This document shows, in pieces, positions 1 through 41,555 of a stretch of DNA of 64,000 bases (positions are counted from its first letter, which is position 1; every line of letters begins with the position of its first letter). A model generated the notes under the pieces. It did not search any database. It was not told the DNA's origin and saw nothing but the letters and a program-made list of their open reading frames with translations. This DNA is from Lytechinus pictus (lineage: Eukaryota): assembly GCF_037042905.1 (NCBI RefSeq), contig NC_087251.1, positions 19,780,001-19,844,000 of the forward strand, read 5' to 3'. Both the position numbers and the translations under genes were made by a program.

Positions 1-925
1 AACATAAAGATTTACTCCAAGAGTTCTATAACCCTGTAGTCACGTCCTCTCATCGTCGAAGACTGAAACTTTGAGTAGAACCGGCGCAGGATTTTTCCCG
101 ATAGTTCCCTTGAACGAATGATAAGATTTCCACTTCCAATCTCATTAATTAGTCAACACGCTGTTAGGGTGTTGTGTTTCTCGCATGGCTTTGCTCATGT
201 TGGCAAAGATTTGGCTAGGCTGATGAGTTCCCAAAGACGATGAAGGTAGTTAGCTTTGAGACAAAAAATTATATCGCGAGATTGTGTAATGAGAGAAAGA
301 ATTTCAACTGAAATATATGCATATATATGAATCCGAAAGGCATGGTACATGACTTAACAAAAGTCTCCATGATGCTTCTCGTACGGTTTAACTAAATTCA
401 TCTCTATTCTTGAGTTTATGACTAAAATACGAATAGCACAATGTTTTTCATAAAGTGTGATTTTTATTCCACGATTGGCACATGTAACTTTTCCCAAGGA
501 AAGAAGGAAGGGTCGACCGGCTTACGCTATGTTTGAACGATAAAGTATGATGTTGGTTCGTCAAGATCTGACACCTGAGTAAATATTAAGATCATCATCA
601 TCGGTTCGGATGTTTAACCCAGAGTATGGTACAATAATAGTTACATCCGTTCCCTATCATATTATGTCCAATATAAACATTACACAGTGTCAAAATGTGT
701 ATAGCTGATTACCCGAATTATCCGCTTAATAAATATTTCAATTTGATGGACATCTATTATACATATTGTTATTTGATGAGCCTCACCTATCCTTTATCCA
801 ATACCATGTCTGATGAGGTGCCGGCTTAAAAATCATTAAAATTATAGCTTATTTTGTATATATTAGGCTGATATTCTTTTTTTTTCAAAATGATATATGA
901 ATAATGAGAAAGCCTGGTAGACCAG

Positions 926-1097
926 GTGGCCGTTTCATAAAGCTGTTCGTAAGTTAAGAGCGACTTTAAGAACGACTGGTGATCCTTTCTTACGCGCTAA
1001 ACCATCGCCTATGGTGTATACCATTTACCAAAAGAAAGGATCACCAGTCGTTCTTAAAGTCGTTCTTATCTTACGAACAGCTTTATGAAACACCCAC
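926..1097. mobile_element. Fold-back MITE, probably PIF/Harbinger-type, with 3-bp CAG target-site duplication
   Basis: About 65-bp near-perfect inverted arms (GTGGCCGTTTCATAAAGCTGTTCGTAAG...GATCCTTTCTT / AAGAAAGGATC...CTTACGAACAGCTTTATGAAACACCCAC) around a ~40-bp spacer. CAG flanks both ends (923-925, 1098-1100). The superfamily is inferred from the 3-bp TSD and termini. Confidence 0.85.
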
Positions 1098-1136
1098 CAG
1101 GCAGCTTTAATCTAGTAATACCACTTTAAAACTTAC

Positions 1137-1185
1137 CTTTAATAATCTTCTTTTTAATAGGTTTTGGTCTAGTCTTCCGGTCCAT
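1137..1185 (-). CDS. Candidate first coding exon of a host gene running off the left edge: MDRKTRPKPIKKKIIK + G, phase-1 intron
   Basis: Minus strand reads aaaATGG (good initiation context), then 16 open codons, then AAG|GTAAGT (consensus donor, plus-strand acttacc at 1131-1137). It sits downstream of a promoter-like region. No second exon is visible in 1-1130. Confidence 0.45.
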
Positions 1186-2200
1186 TTTGGAAAAAGTATA
1201 TTAACAACCTCATTTGTGTCTGACTGCATTCACCTTTCCTTCTAATACCTTTAAAATGAGCCAAGGGTGATGAAATATTTGATTTCCTTGATTTAAAAAC
1301 AAATAACAAACGGATAGACTCTTTTCACGCCTTAGACCTGACTTAGATTTCCGTAACACCTCAGGCATATTCTTCCTTTCCGTACTTGATCTTGACTTTC
1401 AGCTAACTCTTTCATTTGTTAAACATGTAGACTTCTTTATCAAAGATATGTCATTGAAATACCATATTCCTTCGAGGTTTATTTCCATGAAGATCCTTCA
1501 GGATATTGAGAAGATCGAGAGGGGGTAAGGGTGGTTGGGGAGAAAGAAGAAGTCAGTGTGTTCAAAGGACCTTTTAAATTTCGCAGAGTCAATGCATGAA
1601 AACATGATTAATGCTCTCTTCGCTCGATCAATATTGGGATTTCGATTGGGCGTATACCCAAATGTAAAAAACATATTACCAAATGCTTTTTTTTTTCTTC
1701 AATTATTGCAATTTCTATTGTAAAGTGTAGTAAACATTTTTTGTTCATTACTTATGATTTTACTATAGTCCTTTAAAAGAAGAACATATTTGACAAGATG
1801 AAAAGTGACAAATTTATTGAAATTAGACAAAATAATTCAAACTTAATCCACAAAATTCTGAGAATGACTATACAATATTGCAGCCATCTTTATGAACGAT
1901 ATCAAATGAACTTGGTATCTTGTATACTCTCTAGTTGATGGATGTTGTGCTGATATCATTTACTAAAGTGTTTAAATTGATGCATATTGTATGAATAGCC
2001 TGAAACCGATAGGCCTCCTTCAAGTGAAAAAGTGTGCCCCTCTTCTACAATTTTTGTTGTCCTCTTTCTTCTGTCGATTTTTCTCTCTCTTTCTTTGTGT
2101 TCTTGTTTCCTGTTTTTGGAGAGGAATTCCTGCTGAACCAGCGAAGCAAGCTCTGCAGTAAACCTGATACATTTCTCTGCTTGGTTGACTGACAGAAGAA
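1186..2200 (-). other. Putative long 5' UTR of the minus-strand gene, with upstream ATGs/uORFs
   Basis: Non-repetitive sequence between an Inr-like TCAGTC (minus strand, ~2186-2191) and the ATG at 1185. It includes uORF 1887-1843 (MAAILYSHSQNFVD*) in aagATGG context. Confidence 0.3.
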
Positions 2201-2720
2201 TGACAGCAAGAATGTTCGATCGCCCATTGTTCTAGATACATGACGCCACGGTCTCGCCCGTAGCGCCCCCAGCAAGGACTTGCCGATAATTCACTCCAAA
2301 CAGCTCATCGCTTACACTTGTGTTATCATTAGCATTAATCCGAGAGGGATCTTGAAACAAAAGCCTAACGACAAGTGGTCACCATTTTGATTTTCTCTCT
2401 TTTTTTATCAGGTGTAGTCAGTATTGGTTACCTTGGATAATGGTCAGTAAACGGGACATGATCGCCGGACCACCGAGACCGGGTGTGGGTAGGTCCACCT
2501 TCCCCCTGGGCATGGCAACGGGAGGGGACCTGGGAGGGGGACAAGGTAAATGATTAGACTAATGACTCGGACATCCAGGCCAAGTTATGCGGACATTCTG
2601 GACACGGTGGTGGTCACTAGGGGACTCCGTCCTTGTGCTATAAGTTCATGGAAAGTCCGTGCAAATCCCTGGACTCCTCGGGCCTGAACTGGTGCAGAAA
2701 GAGAAGATTGAGATCTGAAT
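2190..2720 (-). promoter_or_regulatory. Putative promoter / proximal regulatory island
   Basis: Clearly GC- and CpG-richer than the flanks. Contains CRE-like TGACGCCA (2241-2248), G4 motif GGG-A-GGGG-ACCT-GGG-A-GGGGG (2520-2540), X-box half CATGGCAAC (2511-2519) and AP-1-like TGACTC/TGAGTC sites. Confidence 0.4.
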
Positions 2721-5700
2721 GAGTCGTGATGACCACAATATATGTTCACACTGCTCGATGTTTCATTCCCACAATTCCAGGTTTATTACAAGACGGTATG
2801 CAGGAACTTGAACTACATCATAAATATAGTCATAAAGCTACGACGCTGCCTTTAATAGAGACGCCTTACAAAACTGAATTAACACATGGACCTATATGTC
2901 CATGATTAACGCCATTAGAAAGGATAATGTATCCATGATCTACATCTGATAATTTTTATATCCGATAGAAATATTTAAACTATTATTATGAAAAATTGAA
3001 TAATAGACTCCCGACACAAAATGTGTATATTTTTATGATTGTAAAGGTTTCTACTTCGTATCTTGATTTTTGAAAGTTGAATATTGATTTCAAACATCTC
3101 AGAGAAATGATTTGACCACATTAGCTCGTGTGGATGTAAGGGGCTGTCCACCAGAATGAAATATAATTTTTGGCAATGTGATCTGATTGCAAAGTATCCT
3201 TGGCCATTACTTGAACACGTTAGAGGGCATGACCAGAAAGATCAAAGCATCGTTAGTACGTGTCTGTCAAAAGACAACCCAGTGGTCAGTCCGCCAAATT
3301 TGTCACCCCAAAACCTCATCGTGTTTTCGATCACCACCAACGGTCAGCTCGATCATGGAGGAGAATACTAAAAGATTTTCGCGTCACTCTACCAAAGGTG
3401 GCTCGGGTAAGCCGAGATGGCCAGTTCGGAGTCAAGGGGTTGGCAAGATGATATATGAGAAGGATGGTGTTGTTTATACGCGATCCCCCATTGTAGCTTG
3501 AACTAGCTTGTGGCCTAAAGTCAAGTCTATTGCTTCCTCATATCATCACCTCATTAACCTATCATTCTGTAGAGGGACGAAATGCTTTATGACCCTTTTT
3601 ATTCACCACAAATAACTCTCCGATTTAACGAGTGTCATTGACACCAAAAGGCGATTTGTTTAACACGTAATTTGCGCGTTAACGTTACGGGTACAGGTGT
3701 ACTATTGCACATGAGCTTTTTTGGAGGGGGTGGATAAAATAAGAAATAGGGTTGAATCGGGGGAATAAGATCAAGAAGCTCTTGAGACTCTAGAAACAAG
3801 ACCACAGTAAGCATACTGGGGTTAATGTGTGAATTATTTGAGCTAAACACGCACCAATAAAAATATCAACAAATTCAAATGACGTTGCACTGATGGATGG
3901 GCATAATCTAATTTTGTTCGTCTCGCACTCACCGGTCGAAATAACTTAAATTTTAGTTGTAGCAGACATCTTGTAAGATAGCTAGTTGATACGAATATTA
4001 CAAACAACAATTTTTTTGTCTTAAATTGATAATCAAGCAGTCAAGCCTTGTTCATTTATATATTTTAGAAGTAATAACGAAGCATTTAATACTGTGCATG
4101 GGAAGAAAGAATCTTTGTCTAAAATGTGTCTTATTTCAAATGAGAGTACCTTGCTATATTCTGCGGGGCAACGAGCAAACGTGTTAAAAATGTTATTTAT
4201 CGGGAGCGCCCTCTGTTGAGCGATTGCGACACTGTAAATGCGATGCATGAAAAAAGATTAGGGGTTATTTCTTCAATTATTATGCTTGTTTTTCATTTGT
4301 TAGTTTCTTACTTCACATATGATGTGATGCACTGACGATTTATTCCATATAATGCGAAATTGCTGTAATATATTAATGTTCATAACATAAAGTCATAATG
4401 GAACTGTCATAACTGTCTCAGAGGAACAAAAATAATCTCGTTCGTTTAATGATAACATCATTGGCTCAAATCACTCTGTATAAACAACAAAAGTATTGAC
4501 AATAAACTATAGTCATATAAAAAAAAAAACAAGACATACATTTCGGGGTCAAATTGTGTTAAAAGATGGTCTAATAAAATATCAAATATCATATCATTTC
4601 TGTTCATCGATTTTTCTGTCATTCATCTGAAAAGCGCATTAAAATGAAGCCAACTATCGTAAAGCAAATATACAGGCATATATCCATCATGAGCTTTCTT
4701 TTGAAAGGCATATGTCATATTGGTAAATGTCTATATTCAGTACAAATGTTGATTGACGTCGGGATTTGAGTGTTTTCCTTCACATATGCGATCTGTTTAA
4801 TTTCAAGAGAACGGAGTTTGGAAAGACAGCGTATAAGGCTCTATCAAGCCCTTCGGTGCAAGCTTCATATAAATAATGTTAAAAACCCGAGATAAGTCTC
4901 AACCTCGAGGAAATATGTGGAGCGGTGTCTTTGCCAGTGATTTACTTCCCCCACACCTGAGAATCCGTGTTTATTTAGCTAGTTTTATAACTTTCATCAC
5001 GTACAAGTCCAAATGCATCTGACGAGGAAGGAAGGAGAGAAAGACGCGAAACCCTTTTCCCTTTTAAATTTTACAAATGCGCGGCGAGGATCACCGTAAA
5101 TCACCCAAAGATGAGAGAGGAAGAAGTTGGGCAAAAGTTCTCTCTTCTCAGCTCCCATCGTGAAAATAGAATTGTCAAGTTGGATGTTTGAAATCGATAA
5201 ATCGTGAACCTGAACGTGCACGTCGTGTCATTGGCTAAAAACTGCGATCTCCGCATCCCATGGGATTATTTATAAGTTTGTGAAAGATTAACAAATATTT
5301 ACGGGCTGGCTCGGAAAACAATGGCACAACTTAACCAAACAAGCGACATAGGCAAAATATTGATGGCTTTGGCCTTTGACCGGGGGATGTCACAAATTTT
5401 TTGGTGAGGGAGGAGGATTATTTTTTTCTTTCTTTCTATATTTCAGCAGACAACGAAGGCGTGATGACACTGCGTGCAAACATGACATCGTCGAGAATGT
5501 CCATCCGATTTAAAGCAATAAACATGCGAGCCTACAATCACTTCTCACTCATCTTTGATAAATTCCGTTGCCATGACAGCGTTCACCTTCCAAAGTACAC
5601 CTCGAAATAAAAAGAACCATGAGAATACTCACCTACAAAACCGATTAGCATCGCGCACAAATAGAAGCGGCATTCTCTCAGATTTTTAAGTGTCCATCCA

Positions 5701-6447
5701 TCTTTCTTTTTTGCATGGTAACAAGAAAACAGCCTCAAAACTGCATCCCATTCTCTGTGTGAGATGGGTAATTACGAAGAAAAGAAAGTGAGAGAAAGCT
5801 TCAGGTAAGATCCAAACAAAGTTAAAGATAATACACCAGAAGAGATTTATCGTGGAAAATTGTAACAGCTGGGTTGGCTGTTTGTGTATGTTGAAATCAC
5901 GTCCGTGACCATCTTCTCAAAACTTCTCCCGTTTCCGACGATTTATAACGGCGTGGTGCAAATTAAGTCTTTACGATTGATGTTCAGGAATTTCCCTTGC
6001 TGAGCAGTGACAAAAAATATACCTAAAAAATGAGTAAGCAAATGGAGTTTTTGTCGAAATTGCTACCGAAATCATAATTTCATTCAAAATGAATAGGGAA
6101 ATATGTGTGTACATTAATCTACAGAAAATATATACGATTTTGAGGGGATGGTTTTCTCTCTTTTGTGAATAAAATTTTTCTTAATCTAGTCTGAAGTTTT
6201 GATAAAGGTTCAATAATGTAATCTACATGAGTGTAATTTATCATTCAAATCTTTAAACCAGACAATTCGAACAGTTTTCTCAAAACTGTAGTGAAGAAAC
6301 GTATTTCCTGAAAAATGTAAAGCCAATTCCATAGCAAAAAAAAATGGTTTCATTCAAAAAGAGAAAAAATATCTAGGGCCTACTGATATTGTTCTTCGGA
6401 CGCCGATCCTAATATACCTTCTTGTGAAATGGTAATTTCACCTGATT

Positions 6448-6713
6448 CCTTTGCAATAATGCAGCGATAAAGTTTGTAATATTTAAAACCTTTTTTTGCG
6501 ATAAAGTTTGTAATATTCAAAACATCTTTTTACATAGTTCTAGTTTATTACTACATTATAAGAACACGTATGTGCTAAATTTGTTCGGAAGTATGGAAGT
6601 TACTTCCAAACAACTTTAGCATATACATGTACTTATAATGTAGTAATAAACTAGAACAATGTAAACAGATGTTTTAAAATATTACAAACTTTATCGCTGT
6701 ATTATTGCAAAGG
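6448..6713. repeat. Long fold-back inverted repeat (MITE-like) with a ~35-bp tandem duplication in the left arm
   Basis: CCTTTGCAATAATGCAGCGATAAAGTTTGTAATATT... pairs with ...AATATTACAAACTTTATCGCTGTATTATTGCAAAGG. Pairing continues inward (TAGTTTATTACTACATTATAAG / CTTATAATGTAGTAATAAACTAG) to a tiny centre at ~6590-6605. GCGATAAAGTTTGTAATATT occurs twice in the left arm. Confidence 0.85.
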
Positions 6714-9700
6714 CTAAACAAATATATCTGATACTATACTGTATCCCCTGAAAATTTTGGAAGAATGCTCGAAATAACTTTGGACATAGTGATACAGTGA
6801 TTAACTGATTAATAAAAGTAAAACTGGTTGCGGTAACATTGAAATATATACCTGTAAAAGGCAAAGGCAACTATGTAATATTTATTTGATGGGTTTTATT
6901 TACACTGGACAATTTTAACAAAATATTCAAATTTAAGACCCAGTACAAACATTAAGTGCACATTGTATTATGTTTCTGCAAAAATCTGACACATGATTTG
7001 GTCCATAAATCTCAAAATAACGTTCAATATCATAAAATGCCAAGTCATTCCATGCATTGCACTCAATGTTGCCTTTGCCTTCGGTCACGTCGATATAGAA
7101 TACATGTCAGGTGCATGGTCTGTTTAGAATGATTGTTAAAGTCAATGATGTCTATTCGTGTGTTGCAAGTATTACTCATTCTCTCAGCTTTTCCGATAGC
7201 AGCCTCCTGGTTCACTGCACTGCCATCAATAGTTTACTCAAAACTTTAAAGGATGACAAACTTCTCCAACCTAGACAGGTTTATTTGTAAAGATAGCGAT
7301 TGAAATCAGTTGATGGTGGTTCGTATATTCAAGATATTGGATATCTGATATTTGTTCTTGCGAAAATTGTTTGAAATGAGACATCTGGATGCCAAATAGA
7401 AACATGATTTTATGCTAATATAGGTTCCTAAAACCGGAATTTAAAAACTTCAGATTATAGAATGAATGATTCAATAATTGAATATATCAAATTAGCAATT
7501 AATTAAAAAAGCGAACGAAATAAAGAAAAAATGTATTCAGTACTTACAAAATATTAATAAATCCTATAAAAAAAATTAGGATTATAGCAAAGATGTATTC
7601 AAATACACCATGTTTTGTAAATTAATTTTTATGCCAATTAGCATTATTATATACTCTTTCTTATTGTAAATCTTAAAAAAAATGAAATGAAAGTAGGCAT
7701 GGCAACTCGGTGTTACAAATTGTTAATGTTTATATCATATTTACAAGCCGATGTAATTATTCTGGCGGTGTTATCCTTGTTCAACGGTGATGATTTTTGC
7801 AAATTGGAAAGTAAGATAATAATGGCTACAGCCACGGCATAATCGTGGTAACTAAACGAAGGGACACTGGTTTAAAGAAAACGTTTACAATACCTTTAAC
7901 GAATAATCCCTCTGAGTTATGATTACTTCTCCCTCTTGAACTAACACAGGAAAGTAGTTTGTCGTTCCCAGCTACATTTTCCCCCATAAATCCGATTCGG
8001 AAACTCAGTCATGCCTCAGTGAAAAAAAGAAAACTTATGACTGACTTGGCATCGCTTATAGCTTCAAAGGTTGGTGTATATCTCTTTTTAATAAATTCTC
8101 CGGATGATATGGGTTCTCTCTTATTAGCCTTGTCTTATACAGTACGTCCAAATAGGGTATGAAATAGAAAGGGGTATACAGCAAGTAATCGTGCTGTATG
8201 AAATTAATATAACGTGAAAAAAAAAAATCGACCCTTCCCTTTACCCCTCCAATCACAGACACACACATTCAACCTCGCCCACGCGCACACATATATGCTC
8301 TCTCTCTCTCTCCTCTCTATTCCTCCGTATGCATAGCATATTTAGAGTGTGAGAACGAGGAGATATAATAAATGATAAGGAAACAGAGGGAGGAATTTAA
8401 TAGATCAAAAGGAGGGTGACAATAATAAAGTGCTTTGAGGATATCTTTGGGCATACGAACCAGCATCCGTAATATATAGCCCCACATCAAGTCCTTAACT
8501 ACTCCTATCTGGCATGGTTCATTACCCATAGTTCAACATTCTCAGCAGTGTAGACTTGTAATATAGTCCTAATATACTTGAATTATAAAACACCAATGCA
8601 TTACTCAATATAGCAATAATCATGTTACCAAGTAGCAAAACAAAAACAGCTAACTTCCCTCTTAAAAACATTCTAGATTCTACCCACAAAAAAAATTTAT
8701 AAAGTAATTGATCACATGTATTACTAAAAGTTACCTCTCAAAGTATATGTAAGACTATTGATTTATTACACACAGTCCATGAGAGACAACACACAGGGTT
8801 AGTCAGTTCGCTCTGGTGTTCACGATATGTGTTCACACACCCTTGTAACCCCCATTACGTATCGGTGAATCAAACAGATAGTTGGTATTAATTACCAATA
8901 ATTATATTATTAGTTTACTTTTTATAATACAAATTCGGTCAATTTTCTGAGTTTTTTTTTAATTACTTGGCAATATACTCATATCTAATTGAGCATCGAG
9001 TACACGCCAATAAACCCACACGACTCTATCCAAACCTATGTAATGTCTGTACACAATATACTCATATAATGTGTCTGCACAAAATTATTTCGTAGTTTTT
9101 CAAGTACACGACACATTATAAATGCGAGATATAAGCGTCGATTTGCCAAACTTGAATTATCGAAAGCTGATGAATTAATAGAAGCTACACATGAATCATA
9201 ATTTATACTTCCCTTTGTGATGAACATACTGATAAACCAAACAGGTTTTGTACACTGTACGCGCTCGGGTTATGATCTGAGATGGCGTCCATTCACCATG
9301 CAACGTCCACGTGATTAATAATCAAACCACGTGGTCAAACTAATGGTGATATCATAACCAGCAGCATGACTGTCAAATATTGTTACATTGTTTTATCAGT
9401 TGATTATCGCACAACAGTTAAATATGGAAGACCGAACATTAATTCTCTAGTCTTCTCAGAGTGAAATCTTCCAGTAACTGGGTAAAATAACTATCAAATA
9501 CGTCGTCTTTAGATGTGAAATTATTTTTTAACGGTATATTTGTAATTATCCAGCTACAAATTTGCAAGTGGTCTAAACTATTAATCATAAGAATGAAAAA
9601 TGCTAAACAATGTTTTCAAGATTAAAATCAATCTCTCTGTTCTTAATTTATTCATACACATTGATAGTAGCGAGTATTCATAACTATCTAACTGTGGGTA

Positions 9701-37210: not shown

Positions 37211-38809
37211 AAAATCATAAAGCGAAGAATTACAAATGATACTGTCGCATTTATTCATATGGATAGCATGACCCAGTTTTATTTGAGTCATTGATTTAGC
37301 ATCACATTTGATTTCACTTCACATGTCGAACGACATGAATGTTTTACAAAGATCCAAGATGATATCAAAGTAAATTTTGGCCAAATCCTGGCAAAATGGT
37401 TTGAGCAAGAACACTCTGGAGAGATGATACAAGTGTGTTATCGTTTGTAAAAAGTGGGTCATCGATGATGATTATTAGAATCATCCCCTGATTCTGCATC
37501 AAACGTCAATCATACGATGAAGATAAGGTAAAGCACAAACCATTCAGATTCGTATCCATGCGCAAAATAAAGAAAAACATTTATACAAACATCTTCCTAT
37601 GGTTGATGCAAACCCGGATAGACGGAGAGGTTTGGGAATCAATTCTGGAACTCTCTGACATAAATATCATTTTTTTCGAAAAGTCATGTTATCCTGTCTA
37701 GCCTTATTTAGTAGGGTTCATAAGGAGAGCAGGCAGCCAATGATTTCTTTTTATCCATAAATAAAAAAAGGAAAATATCTTTTAACTTAAACACTATTTT
37801 TGGAATAAATAAACTCTATTAAATTCTTGCTTCGCAAATAGGACGCTATTGAAAAAAAGAAAGATAAAACTCTTAAATGAGACCAAACGGATAGAGTGTT
37901 CGTTCCGCTCTGTTTATTGCAACAATTGTAAAATTAATGGATACACATGTCATCAAATAGGTTTTGAGGATGCGTTGCAGCTGTCACTGTGGTAGAGAAA
38001 TAGCGCCTATATCCGAACTGCGTTGCTCCATTTCCAACCTGCACTTCAGCGAATAATCTATTTGTTAATAAGTGTATTGAATGAATAAGGAAGGCGATGT
38101 CATATATAATTACGTGTGTCTTGATTCACCTCCATATTCTTGCTCAAACTCTCTTGTCTTTGTAAATGTTTACTTAAAGGCCAGATGCCGTCTGCTGGGA
38201 ATCTTCGCAAGATGAACATTGGATAAAGAGCATTCAAGGAAGACATGGATAACGCATTTTATTTATGTCGCATAATTCCATTTTGATTGTAAAAAGTGGA
38301 TGGATGTAAATCTTGATCAAATGGAAACCAAATGAAATAAAAGCAGATTTTACTACACATTCATTCATAATGTAAGCATAACCAAGTGTTTTGCCTTTTT
38401 CTGAATTAATTGCATATTTACGTAGTCGAAACACTAACAGGTTGCCAAATGGTGGCCTAACACTCCATGATTTTTCTTTTATTTCCGTGAAAAATGACAT
38501 TTGTGACGAAATAGACACTTTCAATTGGGAAATTGATATTGATACCTAAACTTGCATGTTGTCGTATAATATTTTGTGTATTTCTTATGTATACATCCCA
38601 TCAATAATATTACAATATTCAACATGTTAAGTGTGTAAATATCATAGATGAAAGCCTTTTCTCCAATATACGAAGTTTTCTATAAATACCTTCTTCCTAA
38701 CAAAGTTTTTCTTAGGTATCCGATTTGCCAGATAAATCTTTCTGAAAAGAATTTTGATTTGCTTTATTTTTTTTTCTTCTGCAAAAAGAATGTAAAAAAC
38801 TGACATGGT

Positions 38810-38811
<2 letters not shown>

Positions 38812-38887
<76 letters not shown>
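38812..38887. repeat. (TA)n microsatellite, left flank of the palindrome
   Basis: Pure TA run of about 75 bp. Confidence 0.95.
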
Positions 38888-38889
<2 letters not shown>

Positions 38890-38915
38890 GTGATGAGGCC
38901 AACTCAAAAGATGAC

Positions 38916-38975
38916 GCAGGACACCATTTCAGCTTTAGATTTCGTCTTTAATAAGACTTCGTCAGAAGCGTCTGC
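38916..38975 (-). ncRNA. Type I hammerhead ribozyme motif, predicted inactive copy
   Basis: Same motif as 39244-39303 but reads GAAA-UCU-AA-AGC-UG: position 15.2 G>U (38939) breaks the first stem III G-C pair, and the triplet is CUG (38930), violating the NUH rule. Confidence 0.65.
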
Positions 38976-39243
38976 AAATATAAGGAGATACAACATCCAA
39001 GTTTCTCTTGCACATCAGTGAATTATCATTAAGTTAAATATATTCCATAATCTCATTAGAAAGATGAATGAATGAATAAATTAATTGATTGATAAATAAC
39101 AAATAATTAATTCGAATTAATTATTTGTTATTTATCAATTAATTTATTTATTCATCTTTCTAATGAGATTATGGAATATATTTAATTTAATGATAATTCA
39201 CTGATGTGCAAGAGAAACTTGGATGTTGTATCTCCTTATATTT

Positions 39244-39303
39244 GCAGACGCTTCTGACGAAGTCTTATTAAAGACGAAAGCTAAAGCTAAAATGGTGTCC
39301 TGC
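39244..39303 (+). ncRNA. Type I hammerhead ribozyme motif (minimal, PLE-associated type)
   Basis: Core CUGACGA (39254-39260) plus extra A; stem II GUCUU/AAGAC with AUUA loop; GAAA (39276-39279); short stem III GCU-AA-AGC; triplet CUA (39287-39289). Stem I is UU/AA, 3-nt bulge, GACGC/GUGUC, GCA/UGC. Confidence 0.75.
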
Positions 39304-39387
39304 GTCATCTTTTGAGTTGGCCTCATCACAATATGTTTCATACTCACACCTCAAGAGCGTTTGGTACAAGTAAACTTGTCATCACAT

Positions 39388-39388
<1 letters not shown>

Positions 39389-39419
<31 letters not shown>

Positions 39420-39437
39420 ATATATATATATATATAT
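39389..39437. repeat. (TA)n microsatellite, right flank of the palindrome
   Basis: Interrupted TA run. Confidence 0.95.
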
Positions 39438-39546
39438 GTAACTTATTTCTATCTCATATTTTTTTTCTTCATTTATTTTATTTATTTGATTTGATTTATT
39501 TATTTTCTTCTGCAAAAAGAATGTAAAAAAAAAGACATGGTTGTAT

Positions 39547-39550
39547 TATA

Positions 39551-39624
<74 letters not shown>

Positions 39625-39660
39625 TATATACATATATATTTATATATATATATATATACA
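39547..39660. repeat. (TA)n microsatellite following the duplicated ~45-bp flank
   Basis: Interrupted TA run of about 110 bp. Confidence 0.95.
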
Positions 39661-39760
39661 CATTTAAAATTCCAAAATGTCAGAAACGAAGAATAAAACA
39701 TACACGAAGACTTCATCAAACTTACTGTATTCAGTATATTTTGTTACATTGGTACTTTTA

Positions 39761-40035
39761 CTCTCTAACTGCAAAGGAGCTGAGCTGGTCGCTAATCACA
39801 CTCCTCTCAGGGTGAGATGAGGGATCAGTCTTGAAGGAATGATAATTCAATCTTTAAAGAGTGAATGTTTACCTTATTGAGAGTGATAGTGGTAAACAGA
39901 TGCACACTTTCACTCCCCAAAAAGGTAAAATGCCCTCTTGAAAGATTTAAATATCATTCAATCAGGGTTGATCCCTCATCTCACTCTGAGAGGACTGTGA
40001 TTAGGGACCAGATTAGCTCCTTTGCATTTAGAGAG
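39761..40035. mobile_element. Fold-back MITE with ~100-bp imperfect inverted arms (CxCTCTAA termini)
   Basis: CTCTCTAACTGCAAAGGAGCTGAGCTGGTCGCTAATCACACTCCTCTCAGGGTGAGATGAGGGATCA pairs with TGATCCCTCATCTCACTCTGAGAGGACTGTGATTAGGGACCAGATTAGCTCCTTTGCATTTAGAGAG. Confidence 0.85.
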
Positions 40036-41036
40036 GTTTTTGTAGGAAAAAATAGAAAAATAATGATTGAACTCAAACTGAATAGCTAGCAAACATACCG
40101 TAAGATATTAAATCGACGTTTTACCATAATATGCAATAAATTATGCGACAAATTATCAGACAAATATGATATTAAAACTATTATTACTACAGTATAACCC
40201 GAAGCTTCATATTTGTATTCATCTTTCTAAATAAAACGGGCCCACATTCCTATCATTCCACAGAACAAACTATACATCAACAATTCTTTTAAGATGTAAA
40301 AATATATCTACATAAAAAAATAAATTTTCCTGGTTTGTCCTATAATAAATATATCTTTAAAATTTTGAACCGTCGGAAAACATGGTGTTTGGGTGGGTGA
40401 ACATGTGAAGGTGTGTGTGTGTTTTAAATCATTATACTATACTGGACCTAGGATACAGAATGACATGCCAAAACATACATGTGTGAAAAGGTGTACGTGT
40501 TTTTTAAATTAAACTTTATCTGTTGTGTGTGTATGGGATGTGTGTGTGAGGGTGTGTGTTTGTGTATACAAACGTACACCTCTACTCTGGCAATCGAAAC
40601 ACGAATTTCACATTCAGAATGAGGACGGCGAAGCGATTACGTCATCGGTTTGCGGGCAATGTCAAATGGTCTCAAATCTTGTACTGGTGGGTATAGGGGT
40701 ACAAACTTATTAAGTCCTCGATTTATTCTTCGGTTGCATAGTAAAATAAATTCGTACTGACTCAAAAGTCCCTATAATATAGTACATAACTTTTCTGAAA
40801 AATGGGTCCTCATTTTCCTGCGTAAACGAGTGTGTTCGTGTGTATTTTGTAAATGTGCTATATTTCTGAATAATTCAATTTATAATGGGAAAGTGTTTTT
40901 TTTTACGATTTCATGCAAAAATTTCCCAATTCTGCGATGCTCTCTTATTACATTTTGATAATTTTTTATGTCGTGTTTTATGTATAAATGCAAAATGCTT
41001 ATTTGACTTGTGTTTTGATAAATTATTTTATACACA

Positions 41037-41555
41037 TTATTAGCCCGACTGCGTCACTATATTGATCAGAAAAATTTGAAAATTGTGTACAATGCCATTA
41101 TCCTCCCTATATTTGATTATGGTGATATAGTACATGGTTCAGCATGTGCAAAATACATCGAGCCATTGCAGAAACTTCAAAACAGAGCATGCAGAAGTAT
41201 ATTAGGAATAAGTCCATACAGTCACGTGTCTATACGTGAGTTACATGTTCGTTTAGGTTGGAAAACCTTATCAACCAGACGTTGTTGTCATCTAAATACA
41301 ATGGTCTTTAAGGCCTTAAATGAACTTGCTCCTCAATATTTAAAAGTATTTTTCCAACATACTAGTAGCCAGTATAATTATTCTCTCAGGTCCCATGGAA
41401 ATTTAATATTAGCAAAACCTAAAACAAATTATTGTAAACGTTCCTTCTCGTACAGAGGTGCTTCTCAATTCAATAATCTCCCTGCAAATCTAAAGGTCCC
41501 TTGTAGTCTCAAAGTATTCTTACATAGGCTCAATGCCTTCCTCCCTGATCTATGA
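41037..41555 (+). pseudogene. LINE ORF2 C-terminal fragment (RT thumb / C-terminal region); no genuine start codon
   Basis: LLARLRHYIDQKNLKIVYNAIILPIFDYGDIVHGSA...LQKLQNRACRSILG...LGWKTLSTRR...FKALNELAPQYL...YSLRS...PKTNYCKRSFSYRGASQFNNLP carries the motifs typical of CR1/L2-group ORF2. Confidence 0.88.

Follow-up and report, generated by a model that had tools for sequence, protein, structure and literature searches.

A loop-less palindrome in the window, the stretch of 64,000 nucleotides analysed here, almost certainly consists of the 3' ends of a Penelope-like element (PLE), of the kind that encodes an RT and a GIY-YIG endonuclease, placed head to head. The locus is very probably a single 5'-truncated head-to-head insertion of such an element into a (TA)n microsatellite, likely made by priming from both target ends. 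No ORF is left in this copy, because the truncation falls inside the pseudo-LTR.

The palindrome and its surroundings

An earlier note on this DNA had described a spacer-less palindrome of about 440 bp with (TA)n on both sides. The palindrome is real and measures 442 bp; its arms meet without a loop at TTC/GAA (39111-39116) and agree at 94% when aligned, differing by a few substitutions and by about 8 nt absent from the right arm. Both TA runs are also present, but on the right side a non-palindromic tail parts the arm from its run. The features of the locus are the following.

38812-38887, no strand: (TA)38 run, left portion of the target microsatellite.
38889-39113, minus strand: left arm, 5'-truncated end of a PLE pseudo-LTR, with a "short" 3' end that lacks the tail.
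38932-38969, minus strand: minimal type I hammerhead, left copy, with G changed to U at position 15.2.
38972-39113, minus strand: 3' part of the retained intron, left arm.
39112-39115, no strand: junction TCGA, a 4-nt self-complementary word of the family sequence, likely the microhomology that joined two cDNAs.
39114-39330, plus strand: right arm, the portion mirroring the left arm.
39114-39247, plus strand: 3' part of the retained GT-AG intron, right arm, with the last base of its acceptor AG at 39247, 6 nt from the ribozyme core.
39250-39287, plus strand: minimal type I hammerhead, right copy, with helix I GCUU/AAGC, core CUGACGA, extra A, helix II and GAAA-GC-UA; predicted cut after 39283.
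39331-39386, plus strand: "tail", about 55 nt in the family and 56 nt in the window copy, non-palindromic, which yields the "long" 3' end.
39388-39437, no strand: (TA)n run, right portion of the target microsatellite.

A direct duplication of about 60 bp encloses the insertion (window 38753-38814 and 39485-39546, each copy followed by (TA)n). The reading of it as a target-site duplication was rejected, since its copies are only about 90% identical, it is found at these two places alone genome-wide, and no other pair of the family has one; the duplication is probably older than the insertion. A second, older palindrome lies nearby at 39759-40035, with arms 82% complementary and a 13-nt loop. 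It belongs to a MITE-like family of fixed length (about 277 bp) and fixed ends that begins TACTCTCTA and has 398 candidate places, 40 of which were scored. Further on, positions 41022-41555 of the plus strand hold an open frame of 177 codons, without a Pfam match at E<=0.01, which we take to resemble the C-terminal end of a non-LTR retrotransposon RT.

A family of Penelope-like elements

The right arm has relatives at 338 candidate places in the genome, 40 of which were scored and gave 51 matches, and the exact ribozyme motif occurs 184 times, against none in a reversed control. Comparison of one arm with the genome, a check that the earlier note had proposed, returned dispersed copies, recurring head-to-head pairs and the same ends flanking copies with an RT and GIY-YIG ORF. 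Its idea that the locus derives from a PLE pseudo-LTR which carries a type I minimal hammerhead and has inserted into (TA)n is borne out by this family and its ORF-bearing relatives. Most copies run on upstream of the point at which the window arms are joined. For the analysis 91 loci with 104 distinct ribozyme-bearing ends were taken. Since they were chosen through similarity to the window arm and through searches for the exact motif, the sample is no census and the conservation of the motif within it is partly circular. Two subfamilies, about 84% alike, can be distinguished: A, to which the window copy belongs, and B, which is young, its copies being about 99% alike.

The coding capacity of the family is preserved in a B copy, L031 (G000:C19:10761000-10770999, 344-7985), a 5'-truncated palindrome of 7.6 kb with the same two outer ends and arms 99.9% alike. 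It carries an uninterrupted open frame of 954 codons that matches RVT_1 (E 6e-11) and GIY-YIG (E 2.6e-6), both above the Pfam cut-offs. Within the window's own subfamily, L002, which is 94% identical to the window arm, retains endonuclease codons upstream of the pseudo-LTR, with 94% amino acid identity and one stop. The features that mark EN+ PLEs are found across these copies, namely the RT and GIY-YIG of L031, the endonuclease remnant of L002, the tail at one end and the retained pseudo-LTR intron. The L031-type protein has a Cx4CxxC before the GIY-YIG domain, a CxxC inside it and an HFxxxxH after it. In the available text of Craig et al., the Neptune clade is defined by a CX2-5CxxC linker between RT and EN and by CCHH cysteines and histidines, Nematis having a reduced linker (PMC8557442). 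Judged by these motifs the family would be a Neptune-type or Nematis-pattern PLE, the choice of the two histidines being our own reading. A search for a full-length copy with the 5' part of the ORF returned two places genome-wide, both 5'-truncated.

Several arrangements of copies occur in the sample. Inverted copies and 5' truncation are met together with a partial tandem arrangement in young copies, where L026 (474-1598) and others contain a tandem duplication of about 560 bp inside the B pseudo-LTR that does not include the ribozyme. Copies at L003, L013, L034, L038, L077 and L082 are nested in or beside one another's TA runs, so that these microsatellites act as repeated landing sites. At L081 (G000:C9:4439900-4441400) short intron-less units stand head to tail in one arm, about 108 bp apart; this array might be the beginning of a retrozyme-like tandem in which two ribozymes share a strand.

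Two 3' ends and back-to-back pairs

Two alternative 3' ends, about 55 nt apart, occur in the family; each finishes with a similar word, CATCACA or CATCTCA, and TA repeats follow. A TA run (TATATA) lies within 14 nt after 45 of the 48 long ends, and the short ends were typed by their TA run. Among the 104 ends there are 33 adjacent back-to-back pairs, 52-7365 bp apart: 26 combine a long end with a short one, one is short with short, none is long with long, and six contain an untyped end. The long and short combination accounts for 26 of the 27 typed pairs (p 2e-7), the tail being at one end only. Two of these 26 are complex, L034 being a partial tandem and the sole splice-discordant pair, and L003 a nested insertion. 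The latter was considered as a two-template hybrid of both subfamilies and rejected, since its young end sits in a TA run inside the older arm. No ribozyme-bearing partner accompanies 38 of the 104 ends, 34 of which could be typed (14 short and 20 long). Four of these short ends and one of the long ones adjoin an inverted piece that stops before the ribozyme; with only five of the 34 abutting such a piece, single-arm insertions are common.

The tail opens with an ATG and 18 open codons that show conservative differences between A and B, and for this reason it may be the start of the ORF. The search with the 5' part of the ORF gave no full-length copy linking the two. The situation is likened to that of the anole element, in which start sites lie inside the ORF (PMC11167929, in part).

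The two arms of a pair resemble each other closely. Their splice state is the same in 30 of the 31 typed pairs (57% expected) and their diagnostic allele in all 19 (59% expected), although two RNAs transcribed from a single source locus, or gene conversion between the arms, would also make the alleles agree. Nine of the 16 clean intron-bearing pairs have 5' ends at most 35 nt apart, against a permutation mean of 1.7 (0 of 100,000 permutations reached nine), and arms of 0.8-1.8 kb terminate 6-21 nt from each other. When 5' reach was compared in 15 pairs, the tail-less arm went further in nine, by up to 726 nt, the tailed arm in five, and one pair was equal. The window arms share four variants found in 0-1 of 18 other copies of their subfamily.

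Two readings would set the palindrome apart from these pairs. Loop-less palindromes are a known type of artefact, so that an error of assembly or a fold-back in the library has to be considered; here it is hardly credible, as the arms differ by substitutions and a deletion and terminate at two different family-specific ends, and the flanks show no mirror symmetry. The earlier note had seen in the locus a palindrome with ribozymes and no ORF, possibly a mobile family in its own right; such a family would move as a whole, in the manner of a retrozyme or MITE. The lack of an ORF in the window copy and the frequency of short palindromes in the family agree with that view, but the 26-nt sequence across the junction exists at one genomic place, the window itself, every other pair has a different junction, and the same ends delimit ORF-bearing copies in a continuum of lengths that extends to 7.6 kb. 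A mobile palindrome of the MITE or fold-back type keeps its length and structure at many loci, as the neighbouring palindrome of 277 bp does with its fixed length and ends, whereas spacing in this family varies over the whole range given above. Non-LTR retrozymes consist of head-to-tail monomers, each with a hammerhead; the locus has no tandem monomers, and its motifs stand head to head, one per strand and never two on the same strand. Movement as a unit is accordingly very improbable, and sister pairs at spacings from 52 bp to 7.4 kb point to one truncated insertion.

The intron of the pseudo-LTR

The pseudo-LTR contains a GT-AG intron, of 173 nt in the young subfamily, which is defined by sister copies that lack it precisely. 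It is kept in 69 of the 104 ends, absent from 32 and could not be assigned in three; both window arms keep it and break inside it. The intron-less joint is clean in nearly all the ends that have it and is found in both subfamilies and in both B alleles, which indicates that it arose repeatedly. Since CAG closes both the exon and the intron, the sequence beside helix I is almost unchanged by splicing.

Splice state and length are strongly associated. None of the 31 mapped intron-less ends extends more than 80 nt upstream of the donor, and many stop about 55-65 nt upstream of it; among the intron-bearing ends that reach the donor, 42 of 49 extend more than 80 nt beyond (p 9e-16). In D. virilis Penelope the intron begins 46 bp after the transcription start (PMC2377424, in part). 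We infer that the intron-less copies are run-off cDNAs of a transcript's spliced 5' end, and that synthesis of the long ones begins in the 3' pseudo-LTR, which is unspliced. Neither the pairing of long with short ends nor spliced copies bounded by the start is stated in the literature searched, a body of texts that lacks key early papers and supplements.

How the palindrome may have formed

At the window locus the endonuclease would have cut both strands of (TA)n. One target end would then have primed just after the ribozyme, giving the short end, and the other about 55 nt further, giving the long end, the template for both probably being the same intron-retaining RNA. Both cDNAs would have stopped inside the intron, after about 220 and 275 nt, and their 3' ends, annealed at TCGA, would have copied each other. 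In the family at large the two enzymes would often stop together, and the cDNA ends would anneal at a short self-complementary word. Experiments in vitro with a purified PLE protein show cleavage of the two target strands, extension from each, and initiation at two positions, one on either side of the tail (PMC11167929, in part). This route, with two primers and one RNA, is the one that we favour, with moderate confidence.

A single cDNA could also have snapped back at TCGA and been copied on itself, the endonuclease having trimmed the tail from one side. A loop-less centre, near-equal arms in nine of 16 pairs, common alleles and a common splice state would all follow, and so would the four rare variants that the window arms share and the absence of any 5' offset between them; moreover, Craig et al. 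attribute the tail to the resolution of an intermediate by the endonuclease (PMC8557442, in part). Such a fold-back requires, however, that the tailed arm be made first and reach furthest in the 5' direction, and the nine of 15 pairs in which the tail-less arm goes further make it an unlikely explanation. Since a fold-back from the tailed arm cannot give tail-less arms that reach further, and one from the tail-less arm cannot make the tail, each arm was likely reverse-transcribed from RNA. The templates might then have been two separate RNAs, each carried by one subunit of a PLE dimer and copied from one of the target ends. Overlapping arms would then require no strand displacement, the anole PLE protein is predicted to form a dimer (PMC11167929, in part), and the agreement in alleles follows if both RNAs come from one locus. 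Two independent RNAs would nevertheless hardly be expected to share their splice state in 30 of 31 pairs, when both states occur in both subfamilies and both alleles, nor to give arms of 0.8-1.8 kb that stop within 6-21 nt of each other, and the only pair of mixed subfamilies is a nested insertion; we consider this origin improbable as well.

The two-primer, one-RNA route can be joined with the behaviour of the intron in a wider proposal, which we put forward tentatively and with slightly more doubt than confidence. Inverted copies would arise by twin priming on one RNA, each target end using one start site, and intron retention would be positional, only the intron of the cap-proximal pseudo-LTR being spliced. 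Spliced cDNAs would be short run-offs ending at the transcription start, and every long ORF-bearing cDNA would start in the unspliced 3' pseudo-LTR and pass the intron on.

The hammerhead motifs

As the earlier note had observed, two opposed hammerhead motifs are present, one per arm and on opposite strands. The sequence CTGACGA-A-GTCTT-ATTA-AAGAC-GAAA stands at 39254-39279 (plus) and 38940-38965 (minus), two matches in the window against 0.05 expected from shuffles, and helix II has 5 bp in each arm. The Rfam search suggested in that note, run on 38000-40500, gave no hammerhead family at E<=10, the hits being chance matches to AT repeats. The note's register of helices I and III also had to be changed. 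Its stem III (GC-UAAA-GC), with a cut after 39289, fits only 28 of the 100 family ends that could be parsed (27 of 40 in A and one of 60 in B; four ends were unparsed and the sample is enriched for the motif), whereas the minimal fold given above for the right copy, with GAAA-GC-UA, helix I GCUU/AAGC and a predicted cut after 39283, fits 91 (33 of 40 in A and 58 of 60 in B). The same 91 of 100 show the features of minimal hammerheads, that is, the CUGANGA and GAAA cores, an extra nucleotide after A9, a palindromic 15.2-16.2, NUH and a short helix I. The left window motif departs from them, as the change of G15.2 to U destroys AGCU, the palindrome from which helix III of a dimer is predicted to form. 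Folding of the right-arm motif alone counts against the minimal fold, as neither helix I forms: the small hairpin of the earlier note has a probability of 0.90, and helix I of the two models 0.03 and 0.00.

The earlier note had also predicted that a read-through transcript would form a long hairpin competing with the ribozyme, and computation agrees: the whole insert is predicted to fold into a single hairpin of about -350 kcal/mol that abolishes helix II (closing pair probability 4e-15). Any transcript of the locus contains one sense motif only, and a minimal hammerhead is expected to require a second copy in tandem on its own strand; those of PLEs give no cleavage as monomers and weak cleavage as dimers (PMC4209133, in part). 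With its motifs on opposite strands, buried in the hairpin and devoid of a same-strand tandem partner, the window locus is likely inert in these models. The extra A has been described before, and so have hammerheads paired on opposite strands at distances of 100-700 bp (PMC4209133, in part); an extra A10 is known from a viroid hammerhead (PMC3705267, in part). Judged from sequence, the hammerhead is an ordinary passenger of the pseudo-LTR and a predicted ribozyme.

RNA reads matching the right arm in four runs amounted to 8, 15 and 0 reads plus 9 contigs, with no joints and no pile-up of ends, 23 reads being too few to map ends; the source of the spliced-type loose ends among them could be intron-less genomic copies. 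On the 5' part of the ORF, four runs yielded no reads. Three further minimal hammerheads, unrelated in sequence, were noticed at G000:C21:4974242, C2:7619133 and C4:17272218. They have the same layout, with the extra A, an AAUU palindrome (A-U at 15.2-16.2) and other helix I pairs, and the one at C21:4974242 lies upstream of a PLE-like RT remnant.

Implications

Craig et al. regard two matters as open questions: how inverted repeats arise in PLEs, and why these elements retain their introns (PMC8557442, in part). The window locus by itself is a dead-end insertion of a known class and matters little. The clues to mechanism at the level of the family may matter more, at least to specialists in retroelements, and if the proposal is true the family is a readable record of the PLE insertion cycle. 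The counts yield predictions for the existing in vitro PLE system: each pair should combine a long with a short end, its two arms should match, and spliced copies should reach no further than the transcription start.

Comparison with known systems

In L1 twin priming, cDNA synthesis starts from both ends of the target, each cDNA is copied from a different stretch of the RNA, and the resulting 5' inversion is joined at a microhomology. The route proposed here is alike in two-end priming and in microhomology, but both cDNAs would copy the same part of the RNA, and a palindrome results.

The family is closest to C-terminal EN+ PLEs of the Neptune type (Craig et al. 2021, PMC8557442, in part), with which it shares an RT followed by GIY-YIG, the Cx4CxxC linker and two cysteines in the GIY-YIG core. 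Like these elements it has strongly 5'-truncated copies, partial tandems, inverted copies that lack their 5' part, a one-sided tail, a pseudo-LTR intron and a hammerhead; inverted truncated copies and one-sided tails are standard for PLEs in that source. The tail has 30-40 nt there and about 55 nt in this family, and the window copy differs in being truncated inside the pseudo-LTR, without an ORF. The minimal hammerheads of metazoan PLEs (Cervera and De la Pena 2014, PMC4209133, in part) are likewise without loop 3 and have a palindromic 15.2-16.2, a short helix I, G10.1-C11.1, an extra nucleotide between 9 and 10.1, and opposite-strand pairs 100-700 bp apart. In D. virilis Penelope, according to the same text, the intron ends at helix I as it does here, whereas helix II has 7-8 bp in Schistosoma and 4-5 bp in this family.

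The Anolis Poseidon element PAc, studied in vitro (Frangieh et al. 2024, PMC11167929, in part), is similar in its two internal start sites, which bracket the tail downstream of the ribozyme, in its AT-rich target and in the cutting and extension of both strands; in the portion of the main text available, no connection is drawn between these start sites and the paired arms of inverted insertions. Non-LTR retrozymes (bioRxiv 10.64898/2026.07.22.740005, in part) resemble the window copy in being non-coding, in their type I hammerhead and in their kinship to PLE pseudo-LTRs. Their units, however, are arranged head to tail with a ribozyme in each, whereas the window locus is head to head with one motif per strand.
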